The notes under the pieces: generated by a model
The model's input: the letters and a program-made list of their open reading frames with translations, nothing else
Database searches by the model: none
Told to the model about the DNA's origin: nothing
Part shown: one piece after another, positions 10,712-49,010 of the stretch
How positions within the stretch are numbered: position 1 is the stretch's first letter
Layout: each line of letters begins with the position of its first letter
Position numbers and translations under genes: made by a program
Assembly: GCA_964554805.1 (NCBI GenBank)
Contig: CAZKPX010000001.1
Coordinates: forward strand, 317,798 to 381,797
DNA: 64,000 bases
Reading direction: 5' to 3'
DNA from: an uncultured Candidatus Saccharibacteria bacterium
Lineage (GTDB): Bacteria > Patescibacteriota > CAZHWT01

Positions 10712-11618
10712 TAGTTTTTTGACAAAATATAAATAGAGTTTATCTGAGATAATAGGCTATTAGTCTATATCTCAGTACCCTAGGCTATTGACATAATGCT
10801 AACTATGGGCTATACTGTGTTCAGTTAAATCGATTAGCTCAGTCAGCTGATTGAGTGATTTAACAAGTACCTTTAAGTTTCTTATAAGCTATTAGTAAGG
10901 ATGAAGTACGTCCGCCAGCTGGCGGATCCCTATATGTTTCATTCTGATTAATAGTAGATATGAATAATGGTGATAACCTGGATCGCTTCGGACGACAGGA
11001 AAGCCTAAATCATTCTACTGAGGCACAGGGTCGCTCTGGCCCGGGGAAACCTGGACCAGGGGATCAGTCTTATCTCCGCCATAATCGACGCGAGACGGCC
11101 TGCTGTATCCATTATTTCCATATCAACTGCTCCACGGCAATACACCCTATCTTTCATCTTCTGATGACGAAAGTATTGCTGGTGGAGAAAGGGGACAGGT
11201 GGTCCAAAAGGAATTACTCAATTCCATATAGATTGCCTGTCCTCAAGCGCAAAATTATTATGGTTGGTAGTTGGCAGTTAGTGGTTGGCGGAGAAAGTCT
11301 CTGCTAACGGATTGCTGAAAACTACTAACGCAATCTGGCAATACCAGATTGTTTCAAGCCTTTGTCTGGTCTGCTTAACCTATCTGAGCTAGACTATCTA
11401 ACCCAATGTTATCCTGAATTTGATTCCGGATATGGGTTGAGATCCTAGTCTAATACTCTGGTTGAGCCGACCAAGCAGATGCTTGTCGGCTCTGTTTGTT
11501 GCCACATGATGGGACGGATGGAGTACACAGCTACGCTGTGTGGTTAGCGGTTGGCAGTTAGCTGTTGGCCGAGAACTGCAGGAAACGAAGAGAGACGTAC
11601 CTTTACAAATCAATAATG

Positions 11619-11713
11619 GCTGCAATATTACCCACCTCTCCGTGGTGCAGCTTCCGCCAGTTGGCGGACCAGCCTTTGGCTGGAGATGAATCCGTATTTA
11701 ACGGTAAACCAAG
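11619..11713 (+). repeat. three-hairpin structured element, b/e family copy 1
   Basis: tccgccagttggcgga hairpin, then ccagcc-ttt-ggctgg, then ccgt-attta-acgg, then taaaccaag; a homolog at 15440-15511 carries compensatory changes. Confidence 0.55.
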
Positions 11714-11737
11714 TGGTAATAGTGGAGACTTTTCGGT

Positions 11738-11844
11738 CCCCTTTAGTGGTTAAAGTGTTTTTGCTGGTCTTACGATTGTTCTCTTCGTCATTGCGAGGAG
11801 CGTAGCGACGCGGCAAGCTGTTTTGTATTAACCATTAAATGGGG
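11738..11844 (+). repeat. R3 structured repeat copy 1 (core tcgtcattgcgagRagcgtagcgacgcggcaa)
   Basis: 14-bp closing helix cccctttagtggttaa / ttaaccattaaatgggg; copies at 14329-14431 and 22101-22205. Confidence 0.6.
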
Positions 11845-11928
11845 CTGAAGGGGGAGAGTCAGAGGTCTGAGACTTGTCTCAGTGCTGATTAGCTCTGCAC
11901 CTGGGTTCGATTCCCGGCAGCTCCACAA
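11841..11928 (+). ncRNA. tmRNA-like tRNA-like domain (88 nt), lacking the mRNA-like body
   Basis: 5' ggggctg pairs with 3' cagctcc, including a G3-U70 pair; T-arm ctggg-ttcgatt-cccgg directly before the acceptor 3' strand; the middle is a simple helix plus hairpin with no tag ORF. Confidence 0.35.
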
Positions 11929-13076
11929 AGTACCCCATCGTCTATGGGGGTGGGCAGGCAGGTGCGTCGCGTCTTGCGATAGCCTCGTTTTGTCCTTCAT
12001 CCTCGAAAGGGATGAAAAAATGACTCAGGCACAGGCACAGGCACAGGCTCAGATTGTAAATCGAGCGTTGTCTTTGGTCGGCCAGGTGCCGACCGACCAT
12101 CCGGCTTCGGCTCGGCGAGCAAGGGCTCGGAGAGCCCCTGCTTGGGGCCGCCAGCAACGTGCTGGCGGAAGTCCGCGCTGCCGACAAGACAGCTAAGGCC
12201 ACCCTAACGGGTGGCAAAAAGAAGCGCAAATAGCGGTTCTGCCCGGTGAGTGACCGGGCGGAAATCAAATAGTCACTTCGAGGTGGACGTCTCGTTAACC
12301 GTATTCTGGTGTGGCCGACCACTGCTGTGCGATTTGCGCAGGAGTTAATTGGCTCCAGACTCATTCTGGAGAATCATATGGGGCTGAACCCCCTGGGAGA
12401 TTGAGGGATCTCCCCAGACAAAAATATCCTTCCTCCAGCTCGGAGCTAGGTGCGCAAGGTGTGCATCTGGAAGAGTTACAATTCTGGCCTACGTCCATTC
12501 CACGGATATGGCCTAGCGAAGGAGGGTCTGTTATGACCTAACTCCGCGGTGGTTGGGGCATGCTTCCCCAACCACCAACAACTTATAGACTGCGAGATAG
12601 ATTACCTCCACGTGGTGCAGTCTGGATAGATAATTCGAATAGATTCCTGTCTACACAGGAATGACGGATTGTTGAACTAAGTATCTAAACAGGAGAGTAT
12701 TCTTCTTCTCAATAGCATAATTCATCGGTCATCAGTGCGCGTTGGTTGTGCTGTTGAGGAGTGGAAACACTTCTCCGGTTACAGCATCTTGCGAGGGTTT
12801 ATATTCCCTCGATCTAGCTCTGCTGAGACTGTTCGTCGTTCTGCTCCAAGCCTATCATGGCTGGGTCAGGGGCGATGCATGGTCGGGCCCTCCGATATGG
12901 GTAGCGGTCTGGTTGGGGACTTTTAGTCCCTGACTAGGCCTCCCGCCTATCTGGGTTGGCTAGTCTGCCCTACAGGGGTATTAGCGGTGCAATGCCGCAG
13001 GCTAAAAATACAGACCAGTGTTCTGACTGCCACTGGGGTTCATTGCAGCCTGCAATGGATTAAACTCTGTAGTCGT

Positions 13077-13269
13077 AAATCCGTACCCTCGAACCGTCAG
13101 GAAGCGGTATTCGCCAATCTGGCGAAGTCCCCGGTTCAGCTCCTCGGACTACGATCCCCCAAAATCGTGTCCGAGGAGAACCCCTCGGCAGCATCCGCCA
13201 ACTGGCGGAGATACGCCTCCTCGTGGCGCTGCTGGATAGTCTATTGAAAGATGGATGAACTGAGTATCT
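13077..13269 (+). repeat. R1 structured repeat copy 1 (about 193 nt)
   Basis: aaatccg..ccgtcagga..cgccaatctggcg..variable hairpin..tccgccaactggcgga..agatac..GAAA-loop hairpin..gtatct; about 85% identical to 14117-14310 with compensatory substitutions. Confidence 0.65.
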
Positions 13270-13335
13270 AGGAGAAGTTTTAGCGTAAAGATTACTTCTG
13301 TCCCAATTAAGATTCAAGGTTGCTTGAGTTTTGGT

Positions 13336-13470
13336 TGGGGGAGGAGTGGTATTAAGACGCTACTTCTTTCGACCCCGTACCGCGTAAGCGGATTGAGTGA
13401 TTCTCAATAGCCTTGGTCGCTTGATTAAGGCTTTCCTGGCGGTGCAGACCGCCGCCGCCCATAGGAGGGC
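13336..13470 (+). promoter_or_regulatory. R2 conserved structured leader upstream of the ORF starting at 13474
   Basis: Shared with 20419-20547: G-run closing stem, ccgc-GNRA-gcgg hairpin (gtaa vs gtga), variable hairpin, ggcggt-gcag-accgcc hairpin just before the GGAGG RBS. Confidence 0.5.
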
Positions 13471-13473
13471 GCA

Positions 13474-13968
13474 ATGGCTATCGTGAAGACAAGCGATGTT
13501 GGTATCCGAGTCAATCAACTCTCTCTAGGGATGTGGAGAGAGTTGGGAATAGAGAAGCCTTCCAGGTTTTCTTTATGGGACTACCTGGAAGGCCTCGACA
13601 GGTCCGTCGAGGCCTTGGGCCTCAGGGGAGTGGCAGTAGCCTCAATGAGGTTCCTGCCAGACGCTGCGGTTGTCATCGTATGGGAGCTACGACTCCCGTA
13701 CGATGAAGCTAGGCGGTTCGAAAGTCTATCTGATGGGCAGAAGGAGCGATTCCTTCTGCCCTTAGACAAACCGCTTGAATTCTCGGAAAAGATTGTGAGC
13801 CTCAACACGGAGAGAAACACCCCTCCATGGGAGAGACTCACAATCTCTGGGACGGATTCGTCTCAGTCGTATCTTAGCAGGCCGACAGATCTCTTGCTTC
13901 AGTCGGAGGCGGAGGCTGCAATTGCAGCTTACCGCAGTCGGCTCGAGGAGCTGGTCTCCTCGCTGTAG
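13474..13968 (+). CDS. hypothetical protein
   Basis: 164-aa ORF; GGAGG RBS 5 nt upstream; preceded by the R2 leader. Confidence 0.5.
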   Translation: MAIVKTSDVGIRVNQLSLGMWRELGIEKPSRFSLWDYLEGLDRSVEALGLRGVAVASMRFLPDAAVVIVWELRLPYDEARRFESLSDGQKERFLLPLDKPLEFSEKIVSLNTERNTPPWERLTISGTDSSQSYLSRPTDLLLQSEAEAAIAAYRSRLEELVSSL

Positions 13969-14116
13969 GTTTTTCTAGCGGTCGCGACCGCTTAGCCCGG
14001 GGTTGACCGGGTGATCTCGAAGCCGTTTGCGTAGAGCGGCATCAACTAGTCTTCTCTACGTCCAGCGCACTGCTGCTGGGGTTAATGACAGCCTGTCATT
14101 GACTAGAAGTGCAGAC

Positions 14117-14310
14117 AAATCCGCAAACCTCTGAACCGTCAGGAGCGGTATTCGCCAATCCGGCGAAGTCCCCGGTTCAACTTCCTCAGGTTGCGACTCC
14201 TTGTCGCACCTGAGGGAGATTCCCTCGGCAGCATCCGCCAACTGGCGGAGATACGCCTCCTCGTGGCGCTGCTGGATAGTCTGTCGAAAGACAGATGAAC
14301 TAAGTATCTA
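14117..14310 (+). repeat. R1 structured repeat copy 2
   Basis: Collinear with 13077-13269. Confidence 0.65.
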
Positions 14311-14328
14311 GCATCAGAGACTTTCTGT

Positions 14329-14431
14329 CTCACTTAGTGGTTAACCTGTTTTTGTTGGTCTTACGATTGTTCTTCTCGTCATTGCGAGAAGCGTAGCGAC
14401 GCGGCAATCTAGTGTTTCGACCATTAAGTGA
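14329..14431 (+). repeat. R3 structured repeat copy 2
   Basis: Closing helix ctcacttagtggtt / gaccattaagtgag; the same core as copy 1. Confidence 0.6.
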
Positions 14432-14568
14432 GGGAGAAATCTCTCTGAAGAAAAGAATCAAAACCCTGGGGAAACTCAGGTCTCTGCCCGTCAGCAGAGG
14501 GAGTGAAGTGTAGTGGCCTGGCAGCGTGCCAAAGCCCGTACCGCTTATGCTCCGCATCCTGTGAAAGG

Positions 14569-15250: not shown

Positions 15251-15439
15251 TGACCCTCAGCGCACTGCTGCGCTGGCTGACGACGCATTCGTTGGCGAAA
15301 TGAAGCAGATAGACCTTACCTCGGATCCTTCGCGACTGAGATGGTCGAACCCCGGGGAGCGTAAGCTCTCTGGGGAAACCCATGGCAGCAATTGATTCGC
15401 CTCTACGATGGCTCGCCTAGCCGAAATGCTAGTGCAGGC

Positions 15440-15511
15440 TGGCGCTGCTTCCGCCGGTTGGCGGACTGGTCTTTTGACCAGAGATGAATCCGTCTTGAAC
15501 GGTAAACCAAG
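15440..15511 (+). repeat. three-hairpin structured element, b/e family copy 2
   Basis: tccgccggttggcgga, then ctggtc-tttt-gaccag, then ccgt-cttga-acgg, then taaaccaag. Confidence 0.55.
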
Positions 15512-15661
15512 AATCAAAAATAAACGACATTGATGTCTCCAGGCTACTTGCTGGGGAACAATCAGGGGGCTTTTAACGTTGACCCCTGGTTGTTCCTTGG
15601 GCAGGGAACTAAAGCCAGCCGCGGGTGCGGTAGGCTGAACAATTGCCCTAGAGGAGGCCCT

Positions 15662-16012
15662 ATGGCCACCAAATTCATCAATCTAACCCCTCATACGATC
15701 AATGTTGTTGTTGTTGGGGAGGAGGGTGACGTTGTCGCCTCCTTCCCGGCTTCGGGACAGGAGGCTCGGGTGGCAACCACCCGGGAGCTGTCTCATAACC
15801 TCGACGCCGATGGTGTCGGGATCCCGGTCTTCAGGACCGGGTACGGGGAGATCGAGGGGCTGCCGGCCCCCGAGGCCGGCACTATCTTCGTCGTCTCTGG
15901 TCTGGTGGCTGCGGCCACCGACCGTGATGACGTCGTCTCTCCGGGCGAACTCGTCCGGAACTCCGAGGGGCAGCCGATTGGCTGCCGGGGGTTCTCCCGC
16001 CCCGCTCGATAG
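15662..16012 (+). CDS. hypothetical protein
   Basis: 117 aa from ATG 15662 with a gaggagg RBS; the longer ORF is open from 15530. Confidence 0.45.
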   Translation: MATKFINLTPHTINVVVVGEEGDVVASFPASGQEARVATTRELSHNLDADGVGIPVFRTGYGEIEGLPAPEAGTIFVVSGLVAAATDRDDVVSPGELVRNSEGQPIGCRGFSRPAR

Positions 16013-16209: not shown

Positions 16210-16303
16210 GGAGACCTTCGTGGCAGCATCCGCCAACTGGCGGAGATACGCCTCCTCGTGGCGCTGCTGGATAGTCTGTTGAAAGATGGATGAACTAAGT
16301 ATC
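16210..16303 (+). repeat. R1 repeat, 3' half only
   Basis: ggcagcatccgccaactggcggagatacgcctcctcgtggcgctgctggatagtctgttgaaagatggatgaactaagtatc. Confidence 0.6.
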
Positions 16304-16658
16304 AGAAGGAAGAGTTTATTTTTGTTCTTAGCCCGTTGCTCTTAGGTGCCTAGTTGACCCTATTGGAAGATAGGGCCAATGGGTTGATTATTTAGCTGAG
16401 AGCAGCGTGGTGGGAATGAAAGAGTTGACGGCTTCTCGGGTGAGGAGCTTTTGGTGTATCTGGGGAGTGAGCAGGTATGCCGGGAGCTCCTCATTGAGGA
16501 GCGCAACCTAGGTGAATTGCAGTAAAAACTCTTTTGGGCAACCCTGCCCGATGCCGTAGGTGCTCTGGATGAAATTGAGCGCTGAATGGAAGTCAGTTAA
16601 AGACTGGCCGAGCAGGGTGGGTATTGTCGCGAGACGCCCCTGGCTCGAAGGAGTTGCT

Positions 16659-19600
16659 GTGAGCAACAATATTCTTCTTCCAATCTCCGCTTATCGGGCG
16701 GAGATTGAAGCAGGGGTGGATGGCGATTCGGTGGTGGTTGTCACCGCTGAAACGGGGACTGGGAAAAGCACGCAAGTGCCGCAGTACATGTTGGAGGCTG
16801 GGTATGATCTGGTAATCACCCAGCCGCGTCGGCTGGCCGCCCGAACAGTGGCCCAGCGAGTGGCCGAGGAAATCGGTCAGGAATTGGGCGGAATTGTTGG
16901 TTATCGGACGGCGGAGGATCGGCGAGATTCGTCGGACACCCGCTGTTTATTCGTGACCGATGGTCTTCAGCTTGTTCGCGAGCTGATGGGTCATGGGAAG
17001 CGGCAAGTTTTGATTCTGGACGAGGTCCATGAATGGAACGAGAACCTGGAAGTTCTCGTTGCCTGGGCCAAGCTCCAGATCGAAACTGGAGCTGATTTCA
17101 AGCTAGTGCTGATGAGCGCTACGCTTGAAGCCGACAAGTTGGCCGCCTATTTTGGTGGTGCGCCAGTTATCTCGGTTCCAGGCCGACTGTTTCCGGTGAC
17201 GGAGCAGAAGCCAGGAGGTTCGGTGGAAGCCGACGTTGCGGAGCTGGTTCGCCAGAGGCGCAATACACTGGTATTCCAGCCGGGCAAGGCGGAGATTGAG
17301 GCCACCTGTGCTGCTTTGCGGCAGATGCAAGTGTGGGCTGAGATTTTGCCTTTGCATGGGCAGTTGACCGCCGAGGAGCAGGCTCGCTGCTTCCGGCATT
17401 ACGGTAAACCCAAGGTGGTGGTGGCATCAAATGTGGCGCAGACCAGCGTCACAATTGACGATATCGACGCCGTTGTCGACTCCGGCATGGAGCGACGGAT
17501 TGAGTTGGTGGATGGGGTTGAGGGCTTGTACCTTAAGCCTATTTCGCTGGCTGATTCTGCGCAGCGCCGGGGTCGAGCTGGTCGGACGAAGGCAGGGATC
17601 TATATCGATCGCTGCCCGAGTGTCGACCGACCGGAGTTTCCGGTGGCCGAGATCCTGCGCAAGCGGCTCGACCAGACGGTACTCCGGTTGGCCAGTGCTG
17701 GGTTTGACATGGAAGAGCTGGAATTCTTCCATCAGCCTGACAAGGCTGACATCCACGAGGCTCGTCAGTCTCTAGTGGCTCTCGGCTGCATGACAGCGGC
17801 TGGAGAAGTCACATCGATGGGGAGACGGGTTAACAAGCTGCCGGTGTCAGTGCAGTATGCGCGGATGCTGGTGGAAGCTGAGCGGTTGGGGGTGGTGGAC
17901 GATCTCCTGACTGTGGCAGCTATCTTGGAGCAGGGCGGTATTACAGTTGCCCCCCCAAGTCGGTCTAATCTGACCCGACCTGATTGGCGCCGAATGGTGC
18001 CGCAGGAGCAGGAGTCGGATATTCTTGGTCAGCTGGTTGTCTATAAAATGGCAGCTGAGATGACCAATGACCAACTCTATCAGAGTGGGGTGGCTCTGAA
18101 GGCCTATTATCGGGCTAAGGAGATCCGCTCTCATTTGGCGAGGGCTCTGGGCGCTCGGTTCCATTCTGGTTCAACGGGTCGCCGCGAGGACATCCTCAAA
18201 GCGGTCTGTGCCGGGATGGTTGACCATCTCTACCATGGCACTGGTGGGGGATGGAAGAATGGTGACGATACTGTCCGAGAACTGGGCAGTTCGTCGCTGG
18301 TTCAGAATGCCAGTTGGTTGGTGGGTCGGCCTTTTGACCTGCAGATCAAGGCACGCTATGGGCATACCACCCTGCGCCTGATCGAGCTGGCGTCAAAGGT
18401 TGAGCCGAACTGGCTGGTCGAAGTCGCTCCGCATTTGGTGGAGCAACAGACTGGCCTGCAACCTCGCTTTGATGACCGGAAGGGGGTGGTGGTTTCGACC
18501 ACCAAGACTCTCTTTAATGGTCAAGAAGTGGGGGAAGAGGAGGTTGTGGATCGGGAGCACCCCGAAGCAGCCGATCTCTTTGCTGGCTGGCTGGCTGGGC
18601 TGAGTCAATCTCGGGCGGAGAGTCTGGGGTTGGAAATTATGGTTCGCAATCTGGCTCGCAACCAACGAGCTAAGGAGCTGAACCAGCGGGCCGGCGAGAC
18701 CCTCTTTGGGGTGGTTGAGCTGCAGGCTTGGTATCTTGCCAAGCTGGAGGGCGCTGGCAACTTTAAGGAGGTGGTGGAGAAGCAGGTGGCTGCGAAGTGC
18801 CTGCTGCCCGATCTCGACCAGGATTTGATTGATCTGGTGCTCCAAGAGCAGCCAGACTCGATTGAGTTGCTGGGCGAAGGCCTGAAAGTAGAGTATGTTG
18901 ATGGCTACGGTCATCGGCGTACTCACCCTAGAGTTCGGTTGTCGGATCAGCAGATTCAGGCGAAGGCCTGGCTTGAGCTGTCTGATGACCAGCCGGTTCG
19001 CCTGTCTGGCGGGCGAATGGTTGAAGTGGCGGTTGAAGTGGCTTATACTACTTTCTCCTCTACTGAGCCATTCCTGCTGAAGGAGCGGGTGCGCGAGTAC
19101 CTGAACCAGAAGCAGTGGGACGCCTGGCATCGACCAGAGGTCTCAGTTGAGGGGCTGGAGTCGGCAGATCAGATTCCGTTTATGACCGCTGTCTATGGAC
19201 AGTGCGTGGTGACGGGGCAGGATCTGCTGGCTTACGGTACCGTTCGGGCACGCCGGTATTGGTCCAGGATTGATCGCTGGCAGCCGGTGTGGGTTCGGTC
19301 TCTTGATGAGGCTGAACGGGTTCGATCCGAGGCAGTGGCAGCACTTGAAGAGGTGCGAGCTGAAGCTGAGGTGAAGGCTATGGAGTCCAGATTGAAGATT
19401 CTGGATGCCCATAACGGCTGGTTCTACCTTGATCGCTCGTCGGAGGCTTATAAGCGCCTTCAGGGCATAATGGTAGAAGTCCCGCCCGCTAGTCGGGAAT
19501 GGTTGATAGAGGCGGGGCGACTGGTTGAAGAGCTGGCTCCTGCCCTTGAGCAGGCCGAGCAAGATGGCTTGGCTGCTGAACAGGCAGCTAAGGCTGAGCA

Positions 19601-20090
19601 ACAGCAGATCGAAGAGAAGGCGGCTGGAATATTGGCTGCGGTCAATCCCAGTGGTCATCACAACTTTGGTTTGGCTGAGGTTCGGTTGGCGAGCCAGTTG
19701 GCCGAACAAGCGGTTCGGCTGGTGGGACAAGCCCGGGCTCAGGCGATCTTCCGAGAGGAAGCGGATGCTTCTTATCGAAGATCGCTCAAATGTCAGCGAA
19801 TCAGAGAGGCTATTCCTGGTTTGTTTGACACGGAAGTTGGGTCGCGGTTCCTCCAGATTCCGGCGCGGTATGTCACCGAATGGTGGTTGCAAGCGACGGC
19901 ATTGTGGTTGGAATCGAATACCACCACGTCGACCGAGGAGTTGCCTGCTCCTGCTCCTGCTCTGATTGAGCTGGAAGAGCAGCCGACGGTGTCAGTTTTG
20001 GCTGTCAAAGAACAGTCTGCCGAGGAGGCAGAAGAGTCTTTTGACAGTCCTATGGCGCTAGCAATGCGTCGGGCCGGGATTAAGTTTTAA
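16659..20090 (+). CDS. DEAH-box (HrpA/HrpB-like) ATP-dependent helicase with a roughly 450-aa C-terminal extension
   Basis: Walker A TGTGKSTQVPQ, DEVHE box, helicase-C and HA2-like region QRRGRAGR; GTG start at 16659 with an aaggag RBS matches the HrpB N-terminus (LPI..); the ORF is open from 16560. Confidence 0.85.
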   Translation: MSNNILLPISAYRAEIEAGVDGDSVVVVTAETGTGKSTQVPQYMLEAGYDLVITQPRRLAARTVAQRVAEEIGQELGGIVGYRTAEDRRDSSDTRCLFVTDGLQLVRELMGHGKRQVLILDEVHEWNENLEVLVAWAKLQIETGADFKLVLMSATLEADKLAAYFGGAPVISVPGRLFPVTEQKPGGSVEADVAELVRQRRNTLVFQPGKAEIEATCAALRQMQVWAEILPLHGQLTAEEQARCFRHYGKPKVVVASNVAQTSVTIDDIDAVVDSGMERRIELVDGVEGLYLKPISLADSAQRRGRAGRTKAGIYIDRCPSVDRPEFPVAEILRKRLDQTVLRLASAGFDMEELEFFHQPDKADIHEARQSLVALGCMTAAGEVTSMGRRVNKLPVSVQYARMLVEAERLGVVDDLLTVAAILEQGGITVAPPSRSNLTRPDWRRMVPQEQESDILGQLVVYKMAAEMTNDQLYQSGVALKAYYRAKEIRSHLARALGARFHSGSTGRREDILKAVCAGMVDHLYHGTGGGWKNGDDTVRELGSSSLVQNASWLVGRPFDLQIKARYGHTTLRLIELASKVEPNWLVEVAPHLVEQQTGLQPRFDDRKGVVVSTTKTLFNGQEVGEEEVVDREHPEAADLFAGWLAGLSQSRAESLGLEIMVRNLARNQRAKELNQRAGETLFGVVELQAWYLAKLEGAGNFKEVVEKQVAAKCLLPDLDQDLIDLVLQEQPDSIELLGEGLKVEYVDGYGHRRTHPRVRLSDQQIQAKAWLELSDDQPVRLSGGRMVEVAVEVAYTTFSSTEPFLLKERVREYLNQKQWDAWHRPEVSVEGLESADQIPFMTAVYGQCVVTGQDLLAYGTVRARRYWSRIDRWQPVWVRSLDEAERVRSEAVAALEEVRAEAEVKAMESRLKILDAHNGWFYLDRSSEAYKRLQGIMVEVPPASREWLIEAGRLVEELAPALEQAEQDGLAAEQAAKAEQQQIEEKAAGILAAVNPSGHHNFGLAEVRLASQLAEQAVRLVGQARAQAIFREEADASYRRSLKCQRIREAIPGLFDTEVGSRFLQIPARYVTEWWLQATALWLESNTTTSTEELPAPAPALIELEEQPTVSVLAVKEQSAEEAEESFDSPMALAMRRAGIKF

Positions 20091-20418
20091 TCTTTGTCGT
20101 GAGGCGGAGGCCTCGTATCAATACTCCAGCGGCTTGTGTTGACCGCTGACTGCCTACAGCGTGTAGGTAGTAAATTCTCAACACATCGGGCCTGTCCGTT
20201 ATTGACGGAGAACGACCCATTGGGTAGGGGGCTAAAACCCCTACCTACTTTACGGCTGCATATACATGCCTCTTCGTGGCGTAGCTAGAAATTCGTTTAT
20301 GTGACGAAGCTAAATGTATGAGAAGTGGAAGAAAGCTTACTTCTGTCTCAATCAGAGCTTGAGACTTTAGGCGTAGATTCCGGATCTAGTCCGGAATGAC
20401 GGCCTTTTGAGCTTTGTT

Positions 20419-20994: not shown

Positions 20995-21300
20995 ACTGAA
21001 CCCCGGAGAGCTGGAGGCTCTCTGGGGAACCCAATGGCAGTATCCCCAACTGGCGGAGATACGCCTCCACGTGGCGCTGCTGGAATAGTGCTTATTGTCA
21101 GGCTGAACTAAATTCTGCAGAATAAATCTGCGAATAAATCCAAACAGGATGACATTGAGTATTAACTGAGTATCTGAGGGAGAGTTTTTTCTGTCCGCTT
21201 TAGTTTTTTGATTATGAAAATTGATGCTATGGGTACGTTGTTGCTCGGTGTCGATGGTGAGTTAAAAGATTGAAGCGGGGAGATGAATGATGGAGGCTGG

Positions 21301-21478
21301 GTTATGGCAGTGTGCTGTGGCGGCTTCTGTCGGGTATATTTGACATAAGCTGGGCTTGTGACTAGGAACCCGTTTCTGAAATTTGTCTGTGGCCTTGAGG
21401 AAGATAGGGCTGAGGGGTTATAGTGCGGTTGATGTTTTTTAACGGTTAGCCGCTATTTCGGAGACGGGTTTTTGGTAA
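21301..21478 (+). repeat. R4 direct repeat, left copy (about 178 nt)
   Basis: About 93% identical to 22267-22440. Confidence 0.7.
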
Positions 21479-22007: not shown

Positions 22008-22085
22008 ATGGCTGCAATATTACCCATCTCTCCGTGGTGCAGTCTGGATAGTCTGTTGAAAGACGGATGAACTGAGTATCTGACA
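22008..22085 (+). repeat. R1-variant repeat (ggctgcaatattaccca..ccgtggtgcag..ctggatagtctgttgaaagacggatgaactgagtatct)
   Basis: Shares its 5' module with 11619-11650 and its 3' module with R1. Confidence 0.55.
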
Positions 22086-22100
22086 TCAGAGACTTTCTGT

Positions 22101-22205
22101 CTCGCTTAGTGGTTGAGCTAGTTGACGCTTGTTTATGATTGTTCTTCTTGTCATTGCGAGAAGCGTAGCGACGCGGCAATCTAGTCTATTTGACCACTGA
22201 GTGAG
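22101..22205 (+). repeat. R3 structured repeat copy 3
   Basis: Closing helix ctcgcttagtggtt / gaccactgagtgag, with G-U and A-U substitutions relative to copy 2. Confidence 0.6.
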
Positions 22206-22266: not shown

Positions 22267-22440
22267 GGCAGCAGTGTGCTGTGGCGGCTTCTGTCGGGTA
22301 TATTTGACATAAGCTGGGCTTGTGACTAGGAACCTGTTTCTGAAATTTGTCTGTGGCCTTGAGGAAGATAGGGCCGAAGGGCTATAGTGAGATTAACTTG
22401 TTGTTAGTCACTATTTCGGAGACGGGTTTTTGGTTGGAAT
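22267..22440 (+). repeat. R4 direct repeat, right copy
   Basis: See 21301-21478. Confidence 0.7.
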
Positions 22441-24354: not shown

Positions 24355-24637
24355 ACTGATTCTCGCTAAGGATTTAGGTTCTTTGAGAGATGAGACGAGT
24401 GGTCCGGGTTATCGTGGAGGCGATACCCGGACTTTTTCTGTTGTCGGCACTTTGTTGGTATTAAATGTTGCAACAAGTTTTATTATGCCCTTAGGATGTA
24501 TGCTTGAAATTGAGGGGGAGAGCTGATAGAATAAGCCGTGTTCCGGCTATGTAGTGAACAGAGAAAAGAAGACGTGAGAAGTTTTTACAATCCTATATTC
24601 CTCGGTAGCTCTCCGCCAGCTGGCGGAGGCAGAGTAT

Positions 24638-25180
24638 TTGAAAATGGTTGTCTATGCTATTTACAATCAGAAGCATGATAAGATTTATATCGGTCAGACC
24701 GAAGATCTTGATTTGCGTCTCGACCTGCACAATAGTAAAGACTTCATTAAAAGCTACACTGCACGATTTGATGGCGTATGGAAGTTAATTTACCAAGAAG
24801 CAGTTGGTAATCGAGTAGAAGCTCTAACTCGCGAAAAGCAGCTTAAATCTTATCGCGGCAGACAATTCATAAAATCTTATATTCCTCGGTATCCGCCAGC
24901 TGGCGGGAGGAAGCTGCCACTCATAACAATGTGGTATGTCTACTGCCTATATAATTATGATAATGATAAGATTTATATTGGTTATACGGGCGATTTTGAC
25001 AGGCGCATTATTGAACACAATCTCAAGAAAGATAAAAGTTCGTATACTGCAAGGTTCGACGGTGAGTGGGTTTTGATTTATAAGGAAGAAGTCTCCAACA
25101 AATCAGAAGCTGCAAAACGTGAAAAGTCTTTAAAGTCGTTCAGGGGGCGTGAGTATTTACAATCTTATATTCCTCGGTAG
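24638..25180 (+). CDS. tandem double GIY-YIG nuclease (two YhbQ/UPF0213-like modules fused in one ORF)
   Basis: Module 1 VYAIYNQKHDKIYIGQTEDLDLRLDLHNS..SYTARFDGVWKLIY; module 2 VYCLYNYDNDKIYIGYTGDFDRRIIEHN..SYTARFDGEWVLIY; each ends ..SYIPR encoded by aatcttatattcctcggta; the stop codon overlaps the tRNA-Asn 5' end. Confidence 0.7.
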   Translation: MKMVVYAIYNQKHDKIYIGQTEDLDLRLDLHNSKDFIKSYTARFDGVWKLIYQEAVGNRVEALTREKQLKSYRGRQFIKSYIPRYPPAGGRKLPLITMWYVYCLYNYDNDKIYIGYTGDFDRRIIEHNLKKDKSSYTARFDGEWVLIYKEEVSNKSEAAKREKSLKSFRGREYLQSYIPR

Positions 25181-25245
25181 CTCAATGGCAGAGCAGGAAG
25201 CTGTTAACTTCAAGGTTGTTGGTTCGAATCCAGCCCGAGGAGCCA
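25171..25245 (+). tRNA. tRNA-Asn (anticodon GTT)
   Basis: Acceptor tcctcgg/ccgagga; D-stem gctc/gagc; anticodon loop ctGTTaa; T-arm gttgg-ttcgaat-ccagc; gCCA encoded. Confidence 0.85.
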
Positions 25246-36213: not shown

Positions 36214-36897
36214 TTATTCAATTGTCAGATGTTTTATGAGATGCAGGTCTTTTTGATAATCTGCTTGATCTAGGGTGAATTGAACATAATCCGCAGCTCT
36301 TTTCCATGAGGACAAAACTGTTGTGGTATCTATATAAATTGAGGGCACCTTGATGGTTGAGTTGGCTTCGGTGTATTTCTCCATTGAGGACCAAGCATAG
36401 GAAAGAATTTCTGTTGGGCTTTTAACCAAGGCGCTTGTATACGGATTTAGATGTATATAGCGAGCTACATGCTGCAGTTGCTCGGGGGTTTCTATGAGGA
36501 CTGCTTTGAATTGGGTGCTAAACAGAGGGCCACCGTCTCTCTGTATTCGTTGGTTATGGTATTGAGTGTAACTTGACTGAAAATCTCTTAAAAAGTCTGA
36601 GATACCATTGCTTGACTGTTGTTGTAACAGCAAATGAAAATGATTAGGCATCAGGCAGTATGCTAGAATAGTTACCCTTGGAGAGTTTGGGGTGGGCTGC
36701 TGATAGTGTTGCCTTTGTAGATTGCTGGTTTTTAAATAATGACTAAAACTCAGTGGCTGATTGAAAGTAAAATATTCTAGGCTAGCTATGGCTCTCGCAT
36801 AGTCTCGCTTGCTATGAAATGTCGGCGCTCTATCTATGCCTCGATTATAAACGTGATAGATGTGGTTATTTACAAGGGGTAATTTTCTGCGTGGCAT
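36214..36897 (-). CDS. REP-associated tyrosine transposase (RAYT, IS200/TnpA_REP Y1 HUH family)
   Basis: HVYNRG..YCLMPNHFHLL (HUH motif) and a downstream catalytic Tyr region; flanked by REPs. Confidence 0.75.
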   Translation of the reverse strand: MPRRKLPLVNNHIYHVYNRGIDRAPTFHSKRDYARAIASLEYFTFNQPLSFSHYLKTSNLQRQHYQQPTPNSPRVTILAYCLMPNHFHLLLQQQSSNGISDFLRDFQSSYTQYHNQRIQRDGGPLFSTQFKAVLIETPEQLQHVARYIHLNPYTSALVKSPTEILSYAWSSMEKYTEANSTIKVPSIYIDTTTVLSSWKRAADYVQFTLDQADYQKDLHLIKHLTIE

Positions 36898-40561: not shown

Positions 40562-40586
40562 TCTATTGAATAAAATATCGTTCAAC

Positions 40587-44063: not shown

Positions 44064-44780
44064 CGACAGACTGGAGGCGAGGGACTGTTGGGGTATATTG
44101 GGGTGTTATGGGGTTTATTTTTAAGGTGTGATTTTTGTTGTGGTTGTAGCCAAACTGTTGATAGTTATTGTAGATACTCAAATAATTGTTATAGGGTTGA
44201 CAAAGGAGTATTATTGAGTTATAATCCTTATGACAATTAAATATAGATTATGCATACGAGTTATGCACAAGCATATGTCAGCTATAGGTCTTGTTGATCT
44301 TGCCCAGTGTTTGGTTGAGGACCCAATACCCCGAGACTGAACACTTGGCAAGGTAAATAAGACCTTTTTTATTAGTTTGAGTAGGTTGAATAAGGCATTG
44401 CTTGTCTGTTGATTGTTTAAATGTTCGAGAGACGAGTTCGTTCGATAAAGTAGTGTAATGCGATTTAGCATTAGTCGTTGTGAAGTGATAGCCCACTTCA
44501 GATGGACTAGTGCTAGTTCCCATTAATAACGATGTAGTCTTGGGGCGCATCTGCGTCAATAAGCTACCAGCTCCTTTCCAACTTTCTTTCTTGTGATCTC
44601 CGCCCCAAGGCGGATTGATCCTTCCCAACATTTTTTCACTTCACTCAGGTCGGGTGAAGATTGATATTGGGCCTTACCTGAGGAGGTGTGGCTATGAGCG
44701 ATTATTTCGCTCGCGCCGGACCTGTGAGGGTTGGCGCATTATCTGTCTGTGGCGCAAGTCACTAGCCCGAGGAGGGTGAA

Positions 44781-47753
44781 ATGAAATGGCATCGACTGGG
44801 CGTTGCTGCCTTGGTCGTTATGCTGGTCCTGAGTGGACTGGCTGCGATCATAACAATGACCCAGGAAACCAACAATCCGACGTCAACGGAGACTACTTCA
44901 GAAGTAGCTCTGGTGTCGTCGGAGGAAGACGCTGCAAGCGGTGAGTTAGCCGTTAGCGATGAATCTGAAGCGGATGATTCCGCTGAAGACCAATCGTCAA
45001 CGGGTGACTTTCACCCGTTCTCGCAACAGCCGGCCTTGGAAGTCGTCAGGATGGAGTCGCCCATGGTGGCTCCAGATGACCTGTACGAAGTTACCGTTGT
45101 TCTGGTGGATGGTGCAAATCAACCCATCAGAGAGCGCACTTCAATACTGGTCGCGCACATGGATCTCCGGATCATGGATCCGGTTGTCCAGGGCGACTTC
45201 GTTAATGGCCAGGTTGAGCTGAACTTGGCGGAGGGTGAGTATTTAATTTCGGCGGTCCCTCAAAGACTGTCGGAGGATGCTCCTGTCCGCAATCTGTCAG
45301 CGCAACGGCTCGTGGTTTCCAGCAATGGTGACTTCAGCCTGTTGCCACTCAATGACAATCGTTTCGCTCAAGTTTCTGATTTGGATCGAGCTGGCAGAAT
45401 GCAGCTCCTGACCAATGAAGAAATGCGCCAGAAAGGACTAGGACCGACGGTTCTGGTCGAATCCCGGGTCATCTGGCCTGGGTCTGATGTTAACCCCGAT
45501 GCTCAACACAAACTGACGGTGAAGTCTATTCACTCTTCTGCGCAAGCCGAATGGGTGGAGACGATGATCTATCAACGCCAGAATGTGTCATGCGGCGAAT
45601 CTTCGGTCTATACACTGGCCGCTGATTCGAACATGGCCTACCTGGCTGATTCTACCGTTGGTTACTGGACAGCCTTGGCGTCATTTGATGAAGCCGGGTT
45701 TCTTTGCCAGCACGAGGTCGATGGCGCTCGCTATTGGCTGGTGCTGGCTGAGTTGTGTGGTAATGAAGGGATTCCCAGTGAGCCGCCAATCGAGGTGACT
45801 CCGGAATCAACCTCAACAGTAGTTCCCACCGAAGAACCAACCGAAGCTCCCACCGAGGAGCCGACGGAAGTTCCGACCGAGGAGCCAACAGAGGCTCCAA
45901 CTGAAGAACCGACCGAAACGGTAGTTCCGACCGAGGAACCGACCGAGGAACCAACGGCGACGGTTGAACCGACGGCAACTGCAACCGTGCTGCCTACGGC
46001 AACAGCGACAGTTGAACCGACCGCTACGGCGACTCCCACAGAGAAGCCGACAGAGGTCCCGACAGCTACGCCCGAACCAACCGCGACGGCTACGCCAGAG
46101 CCGACGGCAACAGCGACGCCCGAACCAACAGCAACAGCGACCCCGGAACCAACGGCAACGGCGACACCTGAGCCTACGGCAACAGCGACGCCCGAGCCTA
46201 CAGCAACGGCAACACCCGAGCCCACGGCTACAGCGACGCCCGAACCGACCGCGACGGCTACACCTGAGCCAACAGCGACGGCTACGCCCGAACCAACCGC
46301 GACGGCTACGCCCGAACCGACGGCTACGGCAACACCCGAGCCCACGGCTACAGCGACGCCCGAACCGACCGCGACGGCAACGCCAGAACCCACGGCAACG
46401 GCGACACCTGAGCCTACGGCAACGGCTACGCCAGAACCGACGGCGACGGCTACGCCCGAACCGACGGCAACGGCTACACCTGAGCCCACAGCAACGGTGA
46501 CACCTGAGCCCACGGCAACGGCGACACCTGAGCCTACGGCGACGGCTACGCCTACGGAAGAACCAACAGTAGAGCCAACTCCGGATTGTCCGAAGGGGCA
46601 AAAGGAGTGTCCTCTGCAAACGGTGACGCCTACCTATGCTCCGGATGGTCCGCCGACGCCAACCCCAGCGCCTCCGTCAGTCACAACCACCCCAGAACCT
46701 CCACTGTGCCCACCGGGTACTGTGTGGAAAGACTGGGGGGAGCCCTCGGAAGTCGATGTTATCGGTGAGTGTGTCATACCGCCCAGCTGCCCTGTAGGTA
46801 GCGAGCACGTCGACCATAACGATAACCAATGGGTTGATGAAGGCGAATGCGTTGCCCCAACCCCGGTGCCAACAGAAGAATGTCCGAAGTGGCAGAAGGA
46901 GTGTGAACTCCAGACGGTGACGGAGACACCCGTCCCAGATGGTACGCCTACTCCTACGCCATCAGGAGAGTTGAACCTCTCCGAGATGGCTTCACGGGCA
47001 ATTGGGGCACTTGTGGAAAATAATGAGTCAACAGAAGAGGCTTCTGGCGTGGATGAACCCACCGAAGAAGCAGTCTCGGATGACTCTTCGACTGAAAACA
47101 CGGCGACCACAAGTACCGAAACAGCCGCAGAGGGAAGTGATCCGCTAGCACCTGACGAAGTGGCTTCTGAGTCAACGACTGAAACCGTGCAAACGGCACA
47201 GTCTCAGACGACCGAAGCAGCTTCTACGACAGAGGCGACTTCTGAAGCAACGACCGTGGCTGATGACACAACTTCACAACCCACGGAAGAAACTTCTGAA
47301 GGTCAGGGTGCAGAAGAGCAGACTCAAACCGTGGCGACAGAGGATACCAATCCACCTGTCGCGCCAGATGAGCCGGCTACGACGGACTTGCCCGCTGGGT
47401 CGAGTGACCCCAATAGTGGCCAAGTTACTACAACTGGTACTGGTGGTGGTGAAGGTACTGGTAATGGCGGCGGTGGTGACCCAGTTACCACCACCAATCC
47501 AGGCACCAATACCGAAACTGACACCAATCAGAGTCAGTCCGAACCTCCTGCAGCCGAGATGCCGGAGCCTGCAGCCGTACCGGTTCAGACTCCGGAACCA
47601 ACTCCCGTGGTCGTAGGGAATGTCCACACGACTTCGAATTCAGTGATGGCCAAACTGGCCTTCATTGGTGTTGGAGTCCTGAGCTTGGTGGTTGCAGTCC
47701 TGCACTTCCAGATTCAGAGAATCCGGGGATCAAGAATCGAGACAAGAGAGTAG
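44781..47753 (+). CDS. large repetitive surface protein (Pro/Thr/Glu/Ala-rich)
   Basis: N-terminal signal/TM; about 25 units of TPEPTATA; paired Cys motifs [16 protein letters not shown]; C-terminal TM anchor. Confidence 0.6.
45790..46570 (+). repeat. coding tandem repeat (24-nt unit acgcccgaaccgaccgcgacggct)
   Basis: About 25 tandem units inside ORF 44781-47753. Confidence 0.8.
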
Positions 47754-47984
47754 TAAAGACGAGAGCTCTTAAGGAGAGAGCTTCTCAAGAGAGGACATCT
47801 ACCCGGAGCCTAGTGCTCCGGGTAGAATCCCACATATATAAACACACTTTTAGCTTATGCGAAAGACAATAGTGTAGCACTTAGCAGTTATATCAATTGA
47901 TAACTTCTGGGTAGTGCACTCTTAACTAGACCGCACAGTAATATCTTGGCTAGCTTGACTAGTCTAAGGAGGTGAATACTTACA

Positions 47985-48683
47985 ATGAATACAATTGCAA
48001 AAATTCTATTATCAACCGCTTTAGTTGTTGTTTCTGCTTTGTCTGTAGCTCCTGTAGCTCAGGCTGTTGAATCTGAATCTTGTCCTTCTCATAGTGGGCG
48101 CAGCTACTGTGCTTACAAATTGGTAGACAAGGCTCAAGCTAAGGCTGGAGATGTTCTTACTTACACTTTGATCGTAAAGAATACCGGTTCTGTTAACCTG
48201 ACTAATGTACGTTTCGCTGAAAATATCCCAGCTAAGACTACTTATGTTATGGGTTCTAGCACTGCTAAGAAAGATACCGTTCCTTACTTTATCAATGATG
48301 CTTGGGTAGTGACTGGTAGCCAGGGTTATAACGCTGGCACTTTGCTGCCTAATCAGGTATTCACTATTACCTTTCAGGTAACTGTGAACGCTGATGTTAA
48401 GAACGCTGATGTTCTAGAGAACGTCGGCATGTTTACTGCTGACGGTTTCCTAGTTACTGAGGGTGAGCGTGAAGGTAAGCAGGATTGGCGTTTGTGTGCA
48501 GCTCGTACTACTGTGGTAGTCGATGTTGTACCTACTCCAACTCCTACTGTAACCGTAGCTCCAACAGTAGTTCCTACTGTTAAGCCTGAGGTTTTGCCTG
48601 CAACCGGTCCTGGCGCTGCCATGGCTGTTGTTTTGGGCGGTATGGTTGTGACTTTGGTAGGACGCAAGTTCTTCCAGAGCTAA
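47985..48683 (+). CDS. DUF11-repeat surface protein with an LPXTG sortase anchor
   Basis: LTYTLIVKNTGSVNLTNVRFAENIP (DUF11); C-terminal LPATG, then a hydrophobic stretch, then RK. Confidence 0.7.
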   Translation: MNTIAKILLSTALVVVSALSVAPVAQAVESESCPSHSGRSYCAYKLVDKAQAKAGDVLTYTLIVKNTGSVNLTNVRFAENIPAKTTYVMGSSTAKKDTVPYFINDAWVVTGSQGYNAGTLLPNQVFTITFQVTVNADVKNADVLENVGMFTADGFLVTEGEREGKQDWRLCAARTTVVVDVVPTPTPTVTVAPTVVPTVKPEVLPATGPGAAMAVVLGGMVVTLVGRKFFQS

Positions 48684-48697
48684 AAGCCAATAAAAAA

Positions 48698-48722
48698 GGC
48701 CACCTTCGGGTGGTCTTTTTTA
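48698..48722 (+). terminator. rho-independent terminator
   Basis: ggccacc-ttcg-ggtggtc followed by a run of 6 T. Confidence 0.6.
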
Positions 48723-48799
48723 TTGGAGTGAGAAGGAGAAGTGAGAAGGAAAAGTTTGTATGGTCTGTTTCTTATCGCTTCTTCTTTGCACTTGCTAAA

Positions 48800-48876
48800 T
48801 GGTGGGCGCGCATGGACTTGAACCATGGACCTGACGCTTATAAGACGTCCGCTCTAACCAGCTGAGCTACGCGCCC
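48800..48876 (-). tRNA. tRNA-Ile (anticodon TAT)
   Basis: Reverse complement gggcgcg-ta-gctc..gagc-g-gacgt-ctTATaa-gcgtc-..catgg-ttcaagt-ccatg-cgcgccc-a-cca. Confidence 0.7.
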
Positions 48877-48904
48877 ACGTAGACTTTATGTAATTGTATA
48901 ACTT

Positions 48905-49010
48905 TATCTGCTACCTAACTTATGCTCCAGTTGGTTAGAGCGGACTGGTCCGCTTATTATCTCTATTTCGGCTCCGCCTCCGCCGGTTGGCGGAGCAGCT
49001 GAGCTACGTT
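48905..49010 (-). other. tRNA-derived fragments interrupted by a ccgccggttggcgg hairpin
   Basis: The minus strand reads cgtagctcagctg and then ctccgccaaccggcggag; a 13-nt identity (cagctgagctacg) with the adjacent tRNA-Ile. Confidence 0.4.

Follow-up and report, generated by a model that had tools for sequence, protein, structure and literature searches.

A constant 16-base palindrome within redundant tRNA copies accompanies minimal GIY-YIG nuclease cassettes at bacterial tRNA genes

Stand-alone GIY-YIG proteins of the UPF0213/Slx1-like type are very common in bacteria and have no assigned function, and enzymes of the Slx1/UPF0213/HIGLE lineage cut branched DNA and four-way junctions. In collaborative homing a free-standing endonuclease acts together with a group I intron, and the intron shields the genome that encodes the endonuclease. 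The Rickettsia palindromic elements and the mitochondrial GC clusters, which serve here as a lead only, are small GC-rich palindromes found to invade genes for proteins and structural RNAs. A free-standing GIY-YIG homing endonuclease, SegB of phage T4, sits in the transfer RNA (tRNA) gene cluster of that phage (PMC2330249). Here we analyze a 64,000-nucleotide stretch of DNA from an uncultured Candidatus Saccharibacteria bacterium (contig CAZKPX010000001.1, positions 317,798 to 381,797; hereafter the window), in which a 16-base palindrome recurs within tRNA-like and ribozyme sequences. A first-pass annotation had taken it for an element-end mark of the IS200/IS605 type, with an HUH/Y1 transposase as the partner enzyme. 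Neither proposal held: the palindrome replaces segments inside dead tRNA copies and ribozymes, and its partner is a minimal GIY-YIG nuclease (24644-25180), with GIY-YIG gene, tRNA and palindrome recurring across 80 related loci. We are highly confident that the palindrome is a cis-signature of GIY-YIG cassettes beside tRNA genes, and on balance favor an explanation of it as a conserved cis-element of minimal selfish nuclease cassettes, coding for about 83 amino acids, at such genes.

The window was scanned with the exact pattern CCGCCRRYTGGCGG (CCGCC-N4-GGCGG), and 100 dinucleotide-preserving shuffles were used as the null. This recovered nine loci (10912, 11654, 13195, 14235, 15451, 16230, 24613, 24893 and 48980) as against a shuffle mean of 0.01, with none of the 100 shuffles reaching as high a count, and a scan allowing two mismatches added one degenerate copy (21043-21057), the 5' arm of which is short by one base. 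With the flanking T and A all copies read TCCGCC-N4-GGCGGA, giving a 16-base palindrome such as TCCGCCAGCTGGCGGA, with starts at 10911, 11653, 13194, 14234, 15450, 16229, 24612, 24892 and 48979. The recurrence reported in the first-pass annotation is therefore real and its positions stand, apart from a start given as 13192 that is correctly 13194. As single-stranded DNA the 16-mer forms a 6-bp stem with a 4-nucleotide (nt) loop, at -5.9 to -6.9 kcal/mol. Two further window copies, at 13110 and 14151, are of a variant form, TTCGCCAATCYGGCGAA. The uniform presence in coding regions that had been named as a sign of artefact is not seen: ordinary coding sequence of the window holds no copy, and the sole translated one, at 24892, lies inside a fused GIY-YIG reading frame. 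Rfam, searched at gathering and at permissive thresholds with the window and related loci, contains no family for the palindrome or for hairpin-bearing tRNA relics, and scans of viral contigs for the palindrome plus ribozyme and for the ribozyme core gave no matches.

The context of the palindrome is best seen at an intact tRNA-Asn(GTT) gene (25171-25245, plus strand), against which nuclease cassettes are lodged. From left to right, positions 24560-25245 hold an old nuclease relic, a dead tRNA-Asn copy (A), nuclease gene 1, a second dead copy (B), nuclease gene 2 and the intact tRNA, all on the plus strand. The relic (24571-24608), read from the sequence and compared with the C-termini of the open reading frames (ORFs), is the 3'-end remnant of a third, older GIY-YIG gene (..REKFLQSYIPR*) and runs into copy A. 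In copy A, nt 1-13 of the tRNA (24599-24611) and nt 17-23 (24628-24634) are separated by the palindrome TCCGCCAGCTGGCGGA (24612-24627), which takes the place of D-loop nt 14-16. Gene 1 (24644-24889, 82 codons; Pfam PF01541, E=3.7e-14) lies within ORF 24638-25180 and has no TAG of its own, its frame continuing through the next palindrome into gene 2; this stop was lost because the D-arm of copy B was replaced. Copy B retains nt 1-9 (24883-24891) and nt 25-33 (24908-24916) around the palindrome TCCGCCAGCTGGCGGG (24892-24907), which stands in place of the whole D-arm (about nt 10-24). Gene 2 (24929-25180) encodes 83 amino acids (PF01541, E=2.4e-16) and ends in ..SYIPR*, with its final codons and stop TAG provided by nt 1-10 of the intact tRNA-Asn, the stop itself being nt 8-10 (U8-A9-G10). 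This layout apparently keeps the tRNA functional.

Both palindromes of this site thus directly follow tRNA-Asn 5' segments, as had been observed earlier, the segments being nt 1-13 and nt 1-9. In both dead copies the tRNA sequence picks up again 3' of the palindrome, which thus stands in for an internal piece of the tRNA and does not end an element. The proteins of genes 1 and 2 are 60% identical and their patches differ (13|17 versus 9|25), pointing to separate, successive invasions by different lineages rather than a recent tandem duplication. Together with the older relic, the two genes make three stacked generations of cassettes in the window. A promoter-like site matching the consensus (TTGAAA-17-TAGAAT, TG-extended; 24504-24532, plus strand) could drive the leader, nuclease genes and tRNA as a single transcript.

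Relatives of the nuclease were collected by a contig scan of one genome per species, which confirmed 521; the best 79 were kept, and 80 non-redundant loci (424.6 kb) were analyzed, with taxon labels as in the records of the metagenome-assembled genomes (MAGs) and with palindromes and tRNA flanks called by regular expressions and aragorn. Metagenomes supplied homologues of gene 2 with 41-59% identity, of which two bear a Patescibacteria label from the source. On two of their contigs, assigned to Patescibacteria and with proteins ~55% identical, the architecture is the same and the palindrome identical at 16/16 positions, the layout being CCCCGATAGCTC, TCCGCCAGCTGGCGGA and GGCAGAGCA in direct succession, then the gene, then tRNA-Asn. 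The earlier suggestion to look for a 'Y1/HUH or other nuclease' correlating with the motif proved productive. The strict motif has 100 matches in the 80 loci, 96 of them within -400/+700 nt of the gene. Its density is 0.97/kb near the gene as against 0.012/kb elsewhere (79-fold), and at least one copy lies near the gene in 68 of the 80 loci, the hosts being Patescibacteria, Bacteroidota and other MAGs. Nuclease, partial tRNA duplication and palindrome accordingly form a three-way association.

The tRNAs at cassette loci are Asn, Lys, His, Met and Val, and the flanks of the palindrome match the adjoining intact tRNA at fixed positions: 13|17 or 10|24 for Asn, 23|32 for Lys and His, and 36|47 for Met. 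The segment replaced is nt 14-16 or the D-arm in tRNA-Asn (the T-arm region in L001, L012, L025 and L061), nt 24-31 in tRNA-Lys and tRNA-His (the D-loop in some tRNA-Lys loci), and nt 37-46 in tRNA-Met of Bacteroidota, where a D-arm variant, TTCGCCAGCTGGCGAA, is also found. Two forms of the cassette can be distinguished. In the 5' form a dead tRNA 5' part with the palindrome is followed by the nuclease gene and the intact tRNA; in the 3' form, seen in Bacteroidota, an intact tRNA-Met or tRNA-Val is followed by a terminator, the gene and a dead tRNA 3' part with the palindrome. The palindrome always lies within the redundant tRNA copy, where it replaces a defined unpaired segment or arm. Distant UPF0213 genes (P0009, P0013) have no palindrome, with a tRNA nearby in only one case, so the association is specific to this GIY-YIG subfamily. 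Phage and plasmid collections yielded only 3 + 3 weak protein matches, so the cassette does not belong to phages or plasmids.

Tandem stacks or arrays of patched dead tRNAs occur in L036, L047, L049, L055, L056, L057, L062 and L080, and nested palindromes in L001, L005, L025, L035 and L050. The tandem runs at L047 2540-2890, L055 3290-3560 and L056 3268-4550 are built of units of 84-90 nt with one or two palindromes, or of about 330 nt comprising gene and dead tRNA (five copies). At L001 1853-1953 a full-length tRNA-Asn-like sequence lies directly 3' of the real tRNA-Asn, with a nested palindrome in its D-loop and CCGCCAGCCGGCGG in place of the variable loop and T-arm, its acceptor and anticodon arms being intact. 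Five cassette-bearing tRNA-Asn genes contain a group I intron in the anticodon loop (Rfam RF00028, 59-106 bits; L029 3264-3514, L038 3261-3522, L039 3307-3555, L041 3261-3497 and L045 3635-3879), with the GIY-YIG cassette upstream. TATAAT-like boxes are seen 5-12 nt upstream of the nuclease start in, for example, L001, L006, L011, L016, L022, L024, L043, L048 and L060, and would place the palindrome near the -35 position of a possible leaderless promoter.

The cassette proteins, of 79-104 amino acids, comprise the GIY-YIG catalytic core only, and the model is single-domain. Y5, Y16, G18, R26, H30 and E65 are invariant in 15 sequences, the Tyr, Tyr, Arg, His and Glu residues forming a catalytic-type set. 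The AlphaFold model of the gene 2 protein (predicted local distance difference test, pLDDT, 91) has as its nearest structures the UPF0213 proteins 1zg2 and 1ywl, followed by the At-HIGLE catalytic domain and Slx1; in Foldseek, 1zg2 (E=8.8e-5), 1ywl, 7wme and Slx1 entries all came ahead of I-TevI and UvrC, and a sequence profile weakly matched 1zg2 and 1mk0. By its fold the gene 2 protein models as a Slx1/UPF0213/HIGLE-type nuclease, for which structure-specific cleavage is predicted. The title of a Slx1 PDB entry refers to branched-DNA processing, and by analogy an extruded palindrome would be a branched structure of the kind that the Slx1 lineage cuts.

The palindrome itself shows stem covariation in individual loci (TCCGTC/GACGGA, TCCGGC/GCCGGA, TCCGTT/AACGGA and CCCGCC/GGCGGG). 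Its commonest loop, AGCT (49 of 96), produces a perfect 16-bp dyad, and asymmetric loops occur about equally in both orientations (10 AGTT and 9 AACT; 8 AGCC and 5 GGCT). These loops, together with a stem that stays constant between the two ribozyme paralogues discussed below, point to two-fold-symmetric, sequence-specific recognition at the DNA level, as duplex or cruciform, over a strand-specific RNA motif.

Other palindromes of the window adjoin relics of tRNA-Ile(TAT). The copy at 48979-48994 interrupts a tRNA-Ile-derived fragment, as the first-pass annotation had recognized: on the minus strand a dead 5' fragment (nt 6-18/19; 48995-49008) is followed by the palindrome, ~102 nt upstream of the intact tRNA-Ile (48800-48876, minus), and the copy is an ORF-less relic of the 5' cassette layout. 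Between palindrome and intact gene, tRNA-Ile nt 17-30 recur inverted at 48932-48945 as part of a longer inverted duplication (GCGGACCAGTCCGC), and a tandem run of the heptamer GAGAACA (49150-49200) lies just past the relic. A decayed fragment resembling tRNA-Ile(TAT) (about 10833-10910) has the palindrome of 10911-10926 (plus strand) on its 3' side and holds tRNA-Ile words in collinear order, namely TAGCTCAG (nt 8-15), TCAGCTG (nt 12-18) and TCTTATAAGC (nt 32-41).

The variant palindrome, in its longer form TTCGCCAATCTGGCGAA (13110-13126, plus strand, with a second copy at 14151-14167), lies within a tRNA-Asn-like relic whose tRNA-Asn words are CAGGAAGC at 13098 (nt 24-31), TCCTCGG at 13141 (nt 1-7) and CCGAGGAG at 13171 (nt 65-72). 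The two relic regions (13092-13180 and 14133-14220) each combine TTCGCCAATCYGGCGAA with a minihelix of the acceptor stem, which reads TCCTCGGAC..GTCCGAGGA in the first copy and whose stem covaries in the second. The tRNA-Asn word count ahead of one copy of the D1 ribozyme repeat (see below) was reached by 14 of 5000 shuffles, and the other D1 copies have diverged; with a single significant case, a link between the cassettes of the island described below and tRNA-Asn is only suggestive. A 'minihelix' resembling transfer-messenger RNA (tmRNA) lies at 11841-11928, with the acceptor 5' strand, T-arm and acceptor 3' strand present and the entire mRNA/pseudoknot interior missing; its Rfam tmRNA match reaches 42.8 bits as against a gathering score of 47, and an element with ssrA as its target may have left it behind.

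The remaining copies belong to an island of nine ribozyme repeats resembling that of hepatitis delta virus (HDV), all on the plus strand between 11618 and 22080, in which GC is 54-59% as against ~47% in the surroundings. Six of the nine carry the palindrome in unpaired segments. It lies in J1/2 in three D1 repeats (13187-13269, 14227-14309 and 16222-16304, with palindromes at 13194-13209, 14234-14249 and 16229-16244) and, in degenerate form (21043-21057), in a repeat with an enlarged P4 (21036-21175). In ribozyme 'b' (11618-11721; a half-match to Rfam RF02682) the palindrome (11653-11668) lies with a second hairpin between the P1 3' strand and P1.1, and its paralogue 'e' (15384-15517) has it in the same place (15450-15465), with an extra 32-nt insert in L3. 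Three repeats have no palindrome: a reference copy (20254-20319), another at 12588-12686 and a chimera (22010-22080) with a b-type 5' half, a D1-type 3' half and a poorly paired P2. The first-pass annotation had seen the palindrome as a hairpin of its 'R1' and 'b/e' repeats; it is indeed inside these repeats, which we identify as HDV-like ribozymes with putative self-cleavage, and is internal to them instead of marking an element end.

Several lines of evidence converge on this assignment. Rfam RF02682 matches 20255-20321 at 35.1 bits (E=3e-4 in a 2.2-kb search), under the gathering score of 44, and gives a half-match of 19 bits at 11619-11651; the palindrome-carrying copies were not reported by this search. 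A structural scan found eight ribozyme cores, all on the plus strand at 11.6-22.1 kb, plus the e copy. The nested double pseudoknot layout P1/P3/L3/P1.1/P4/P2 is present, with P2 complements in most copies. In the spliced-core alignment A5, 98.5% of cells are paired and five pairs are compensatory, as against 22-59% pairing for slid partners, and the covariation score of 0.442 was reached by none of 500 shuffles (0.224 in shuffles). Scanning metagenomes for the P3-L3-P1' core gave about nine more ribozymes, whose P1 5' strands are complementary though outside the search pattern, and in which the base directly following P1' is G or A according to whether L3 position 3 is C or T; these two bases make up the P1.1 pairing. 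Two of the same type lie on the minus strand of one metagenomic contig, L094 (4142 and 1802); arrays of such ribozymes are thus not confined to this genome.

None of these roughly nine metagenomic relatives has the palindrome. Compared with the e-type 5' region, it stands in for 'ATT' of J1/2 in the F and D1 copies, and between b and e, hairpin 2, P1, P2 and P4 change by compensation while the palindrome stem is identical. Being absent from relatives, and either replacing 'ATT' or sitting between P1' and P1.1, it is an addition to unpaired segments, just like its counterpart in the D-loop of the tRNA, which suggests that genes for structured RNAs can receive the palindrome by itself. The resemblance to HDV-like ribozymes of the drz-Fpra type (RF02682) thus lies in the covarying P1/P3/L3/P1.1/P4/P2 layout, and the difference in the extra peripheral stem that the palindrome forms in six window copies, in J1/2 or, unusually, between P1 and P1.1. 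R2 elements use 28S ribosomal RNA to supply the P1 of their ribozyme. A comparable supply of P1 in the D1 ribozymes by tRNA-Asn was considered and rejected: the hairpin-less e paralogue region already has the same P1, and significant tRNA-Asn words precede one D1 copy only. Theta ribozymes adjoin phage tRNAs (PMC10879173); some of the window ribozymes likewise adjoin tRNA-like relics, but their predicted cleavage sites are not at a tRNA 3' end.

Further features accompany the island. Behind most of the ribozymes stands a small conserved hairpin (GAGACTTTCTGTCTC-like), and the majority of the small island ORFs come after a ribozyme; the array may serve in processing a polycistronic transcript. 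An 89-nt repeat family (..CATTGCGAGRAGCGTAGCGACGCGGCAA..) lies 3' of three ribozymes (11731-11819, 14322-14410 and 22094-22182), and a 124-nt direct repeat, 95% identical and spaced by 964 nt (21307-21430 and 22271-22394), brackets the chimeric copy at 22010. ORF 15662-16012 encodes 116 amino acids matching the PADLOC model 'Unk_01, small protein sometimes fused to CARF' (E=1.5e-22), and ORF 16560-20090 a 1176-amino-acid HrpA/DEAH-like helicase with homologues up to 73% identical, of which those named by source are few, 52-68% identical and mostly from Patescibacteria. The contig of a 55%-identical helicase homologue (L083, with a TrmB-family gene upstream) contains no palindrome, ribozyme or tRNA, and the remaining island ORFs match no family. 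Over nearly all of the 64 kb the GC skew is uniformly positive and very strong (+0.1 to +0.5 per 2 kb), 46-48 kb being the exception.

The explanation that we favor starts from the fixed substitution sites, the conservation and covariation of the palindrome, the stacking of diverged cassettes and the overlap of gene end and tRNA. The specific route of invasion, which we advance tentatively and which may well prove wrong, would run as follows. The nuclease would break a tRNA gene, and repair of the break would copy from a cassette-bearing allele. The incoming unit would begin (5' form) or end (3' form) with the palindrome and bring a spare version of the displaced tRNA part at its other end, so that the old part would be left dead and patched and a working tRNA regenerated. 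Repeated invasions would then stack cassettes because the regenerated tRNA is a target again. The palindrome would most likely be the dyad-symmetric DNA site of the nuclease, as duplex or extruded cruciform; it would also split a direct repeat that could otherwise delete the gene, and would deprive the dead copy of unbroken homology and of its tRNA-like fold.

Several points weigh against this explanation. Its biochemistry, that is binding or cutting of the palindrome or tRNA gene by the nuclease, is something we infer from association. The 80 loci are top-scoring relatives and not a random sample, and 12 of them lack a strict motif, several of these having covarying variants. Lacking a DNA-binding domain, the protein could read a specific 16-bp sequence only by dimerizing or by recognizing structure. 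The regenerated tRNA keeps the presumed target, leaving the classical immunity logic of homing endonucleases incomplete, and a palindrome cut by its own nuclease would be erased by repair from the intact tRNA. Multiple or nested palindromes in one dead copy (L001, L005, L024, L035 and L047), and the copies in ribozymes, are easier to reconcile with a palindrome that inserts independently than with the scar of a single cleavage site; at the same time, a hydrolytic GIY-YIG enzyme cannot rejoin DNA, so implantation of the 16-mer is without obvious chemistry. A bolder version, to which we give some but clearly minor credence, is that of a new kind of minimal mobile system, the GIY-YIG counterpart of repetitive extragenic palindromes (REPs) and REP-associated tyrosine transposases (RAYTs). 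The nuclease would here cut unpaired loops of RNA-like folded DNA (tRNA arms, ribozyme junctions and the palindrome's own loop), and the palindrome would be written into the break. In Patescibacteria, Bacteroidota and other phyla the system would in this way colonize and disable tRNA-like and ribozyme sequences that are redundant.

Explanations that dispense with a DNA-level role in mobility have also to be weighed. The hairpin could act in the transcript, as a very stable leader or trailer clamp that prevents base pairing between the real tRNA and the dead half, as a shield of the nuclease messenger RNA end made by tRNA processing, or as a protein-binding peripheral stem of the ribozymes. Consistent with this, all copies lie in regions expected to be transcribed with a tRNA or ribozyme, promoter-like boxes occur upstream of dead copies, the palindrome always occupies unpaired places where the fold of the host RNA can accommodate it (D-loop, J1/2, between P1 and P1.1), its stem covaries in some loci, and the b and e ribozymes have kept P1, P2, P4 and hairpin 2 by compensatory changes despite its presence. 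However, the sequence itself, beyond its pairing, is conserved at 16/16 positions across phyla whereas the adjoining hairpin 2 covaries freely; neither the self-complementary consensus loop nor the equal use of asymmetric loops in both orientations is expected of a strand-specific RNA motif; and the palindrome lies on opposite sides of the ORF in the 5' and 3' forms. We therefore consider action at the RNA level unlikely. That change of side also bears on the possibility that the palindrome is an operator, a duplex site for repression of the cassette promoter by the nuclease or by a regulator of the host, with no role in mobility. The perfect dyad, its location 27-48 nt upstream of the ATG in the 5' form, and the TATAAT-like box between palindrome and ATG in many Patescibacteria loci, which sets the palindrome near -35, would suit an operator. 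Yet the palindrome is downstream of the gene in the 3' form and is found also in ORF-less relics, tandem dead-tRNA arrays and ribozymes, and an operator would leave the constant replacement of part of a tRNA copy unexplained, making this reading quite improbable.

The REP-like alternative, in which the palindrome is a substrate of an HUH/Y1 transposase (IS200/IS605 TnpA or RAYT), draws on a short GC-rich hairpin in intergenic DNA and on a gene at 36214-36897 that the first-pass annotation had called a RAYT. The gene is RAYT-like, scoring 56 bits against a family cut-off of 80, and lies 11 kb from the nearest palindrome; the only inverted repeat near it (CCTCAAATCCTCC/GGGGGATTTGAGG) is unrelated to the palindrome, as the annotation had said. 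In the gene lists inspected (L001, the P0007 contig and L002) the GIY-YIG gene is the sole called gene in common, with aragorn adding a tRNA-Asn in L001 and L002; the other cassette loci were scanned for tRNAs and the motif, and none for a Y1 domain. There is a single palindrome type in place of a left-end/right-end hairpin pair, the left flanks are heterogeneous (..AGCTC, ..GGTAGA, ..CTCATA, ..GCAGCA) and no fixed target tetranucleotide is seen. A transposase of this kind is accordingly very improbable as the partner. Chance, a restriction or methylation-site artefact or a generic terminator, for which one might cite the GC-richness and the CAGCTG within the motif, has a practically negligible probability given the excess over shuffles, the absence from ordinary coding sequence, the enrichment beside GIY-YIG genes of unrelated genomes and the lack of a T-run. 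Three other ideas were dropped: palindromic 'P-nucleotide' scars of hairpin-capped breaks would derive from the flank and not be constant; a role for the dead tRNA flanks in guiding an RNA-guided nuclease sits poorly with flanks that can differ from the local tRNA (L007, L003) and with so tiny a protein; and decoys for anticodon nucleases would not have the anticodon stem destroyed.

Under the favored explanation, that of a cis-element of selfish nuclease cassettes, a large GIY-YIG subfamily gains a genomic behavior, a candidate DNA site and a target class, the tRNA genes, so that a 16-bp oligonucleotide and an 83-residue protein suffice to put its biochemistry to a direct test. A selfish gene would thereby occupy an essential RNA gene with neither intron nor integrase, by carrying a spare copy of the part that it displaces. 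The cassettes would also account for odd arrays of tRNA-like fragments in Patescibacteria and Bacteroidota genomes that annotation pipelines ignore. Should the palindrome indeed implant alone, it would be the smallest nuclease-linked mobile sequence known, and a very small sequence- or structure-specific nuclease could serve as a tool. A literature search by keywords and by sequence string, with most subscription journals outside its coverage, returned no description of GIY-YIG/tRNA/palindrome cassettes, and a GIY-YIG phylogenomics paper mentions only a TrmH fusion. The cassette family is thus apparently undescribed, as well as widespread, although selfish GIY-YIG nuclease cassettes are a kind already known.

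Set beside described systems, the cassettes come close to the Seg endonucleases of T4-like phages in having a GIY-YIG gene beside conserved essential genes (tRNAs), a proposed spread by break repair, stacking and a patchy distribution. They differ in duplicating part of the tRNA, so that the target is regenerated, and in the constant 16-bp palindrome of the dead copy. Moreover, in I-TevI and the Seg enzymes the catalytic domain is tethered to a C-terminal DNA-binding domain, whereas the cassette protein is a core of ~83 amino acids without that domain; it belongs by fold to the Slx1/UPF0213 lineage instead, and its hosts are chromosomes of Patescibacteria, Bacteroidota and others rather than phages. 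The group I introns in five cassette-bearing tRNA-Asn genes recall collaborative homing. Slx1, At-HIGLE and the UPF0213 (YhbQ-type) proteins share the minimal GIY-YIG core and are the nearest structures, but their known members act in housekeeping repair or have no assigned function, and we know of none that is tied to a tRNA gene or a cognate palindrome. With the islands at tRNA genes, such as tyrosine-integrase islands and tycheposons, the cassettes share partial tRNA duplications, stacked insertions and a regenerated tRNA; in contrast, the cassette may duplicate the tRNA 5' part and its dead copy is palindrome-patched, and no recombinase or integrase domain was found in the island ORFs tested or in the three inspected cassette gene lists. 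Like REP/RAYT systems they combine a short GC-rich palindrome multiplying in non-coding DNA with a cognate nuclease gene flanked by copies; here, however, the enzyme is GIY-YIG and not HUH, the palindrome is of 16 bp with copies in dead tRNAs and ribozymes rather than between genes, and the chemistry of rejoining through a covalent intermediate is lacking. IS200/IS605 elements, with their Y1 enzyme TnpA, are bounded by distinct sub-terminal left and right hairpins and insert 3' of a fixed tetra- or pentanucleotide, unlike the single palindrome type and heterogeneous left flanks of the cassettes. Insertion, sometimes nested, where the RNA fold tolerates it is shared with Rickettsia palindromic elements and mitochondrial GC clusters, from which the cassette palindrome differs in being much shorter, constant across phyla and linked to a nuclease. 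Having neither a Y1 enzyme nor a DNA-binding domain, the cassettes depart from the defining features of both REP/RAYT systems and homing endonucleases, and there is a real chance that they are something more unusual than the selfish GIY-YIG kind already known.

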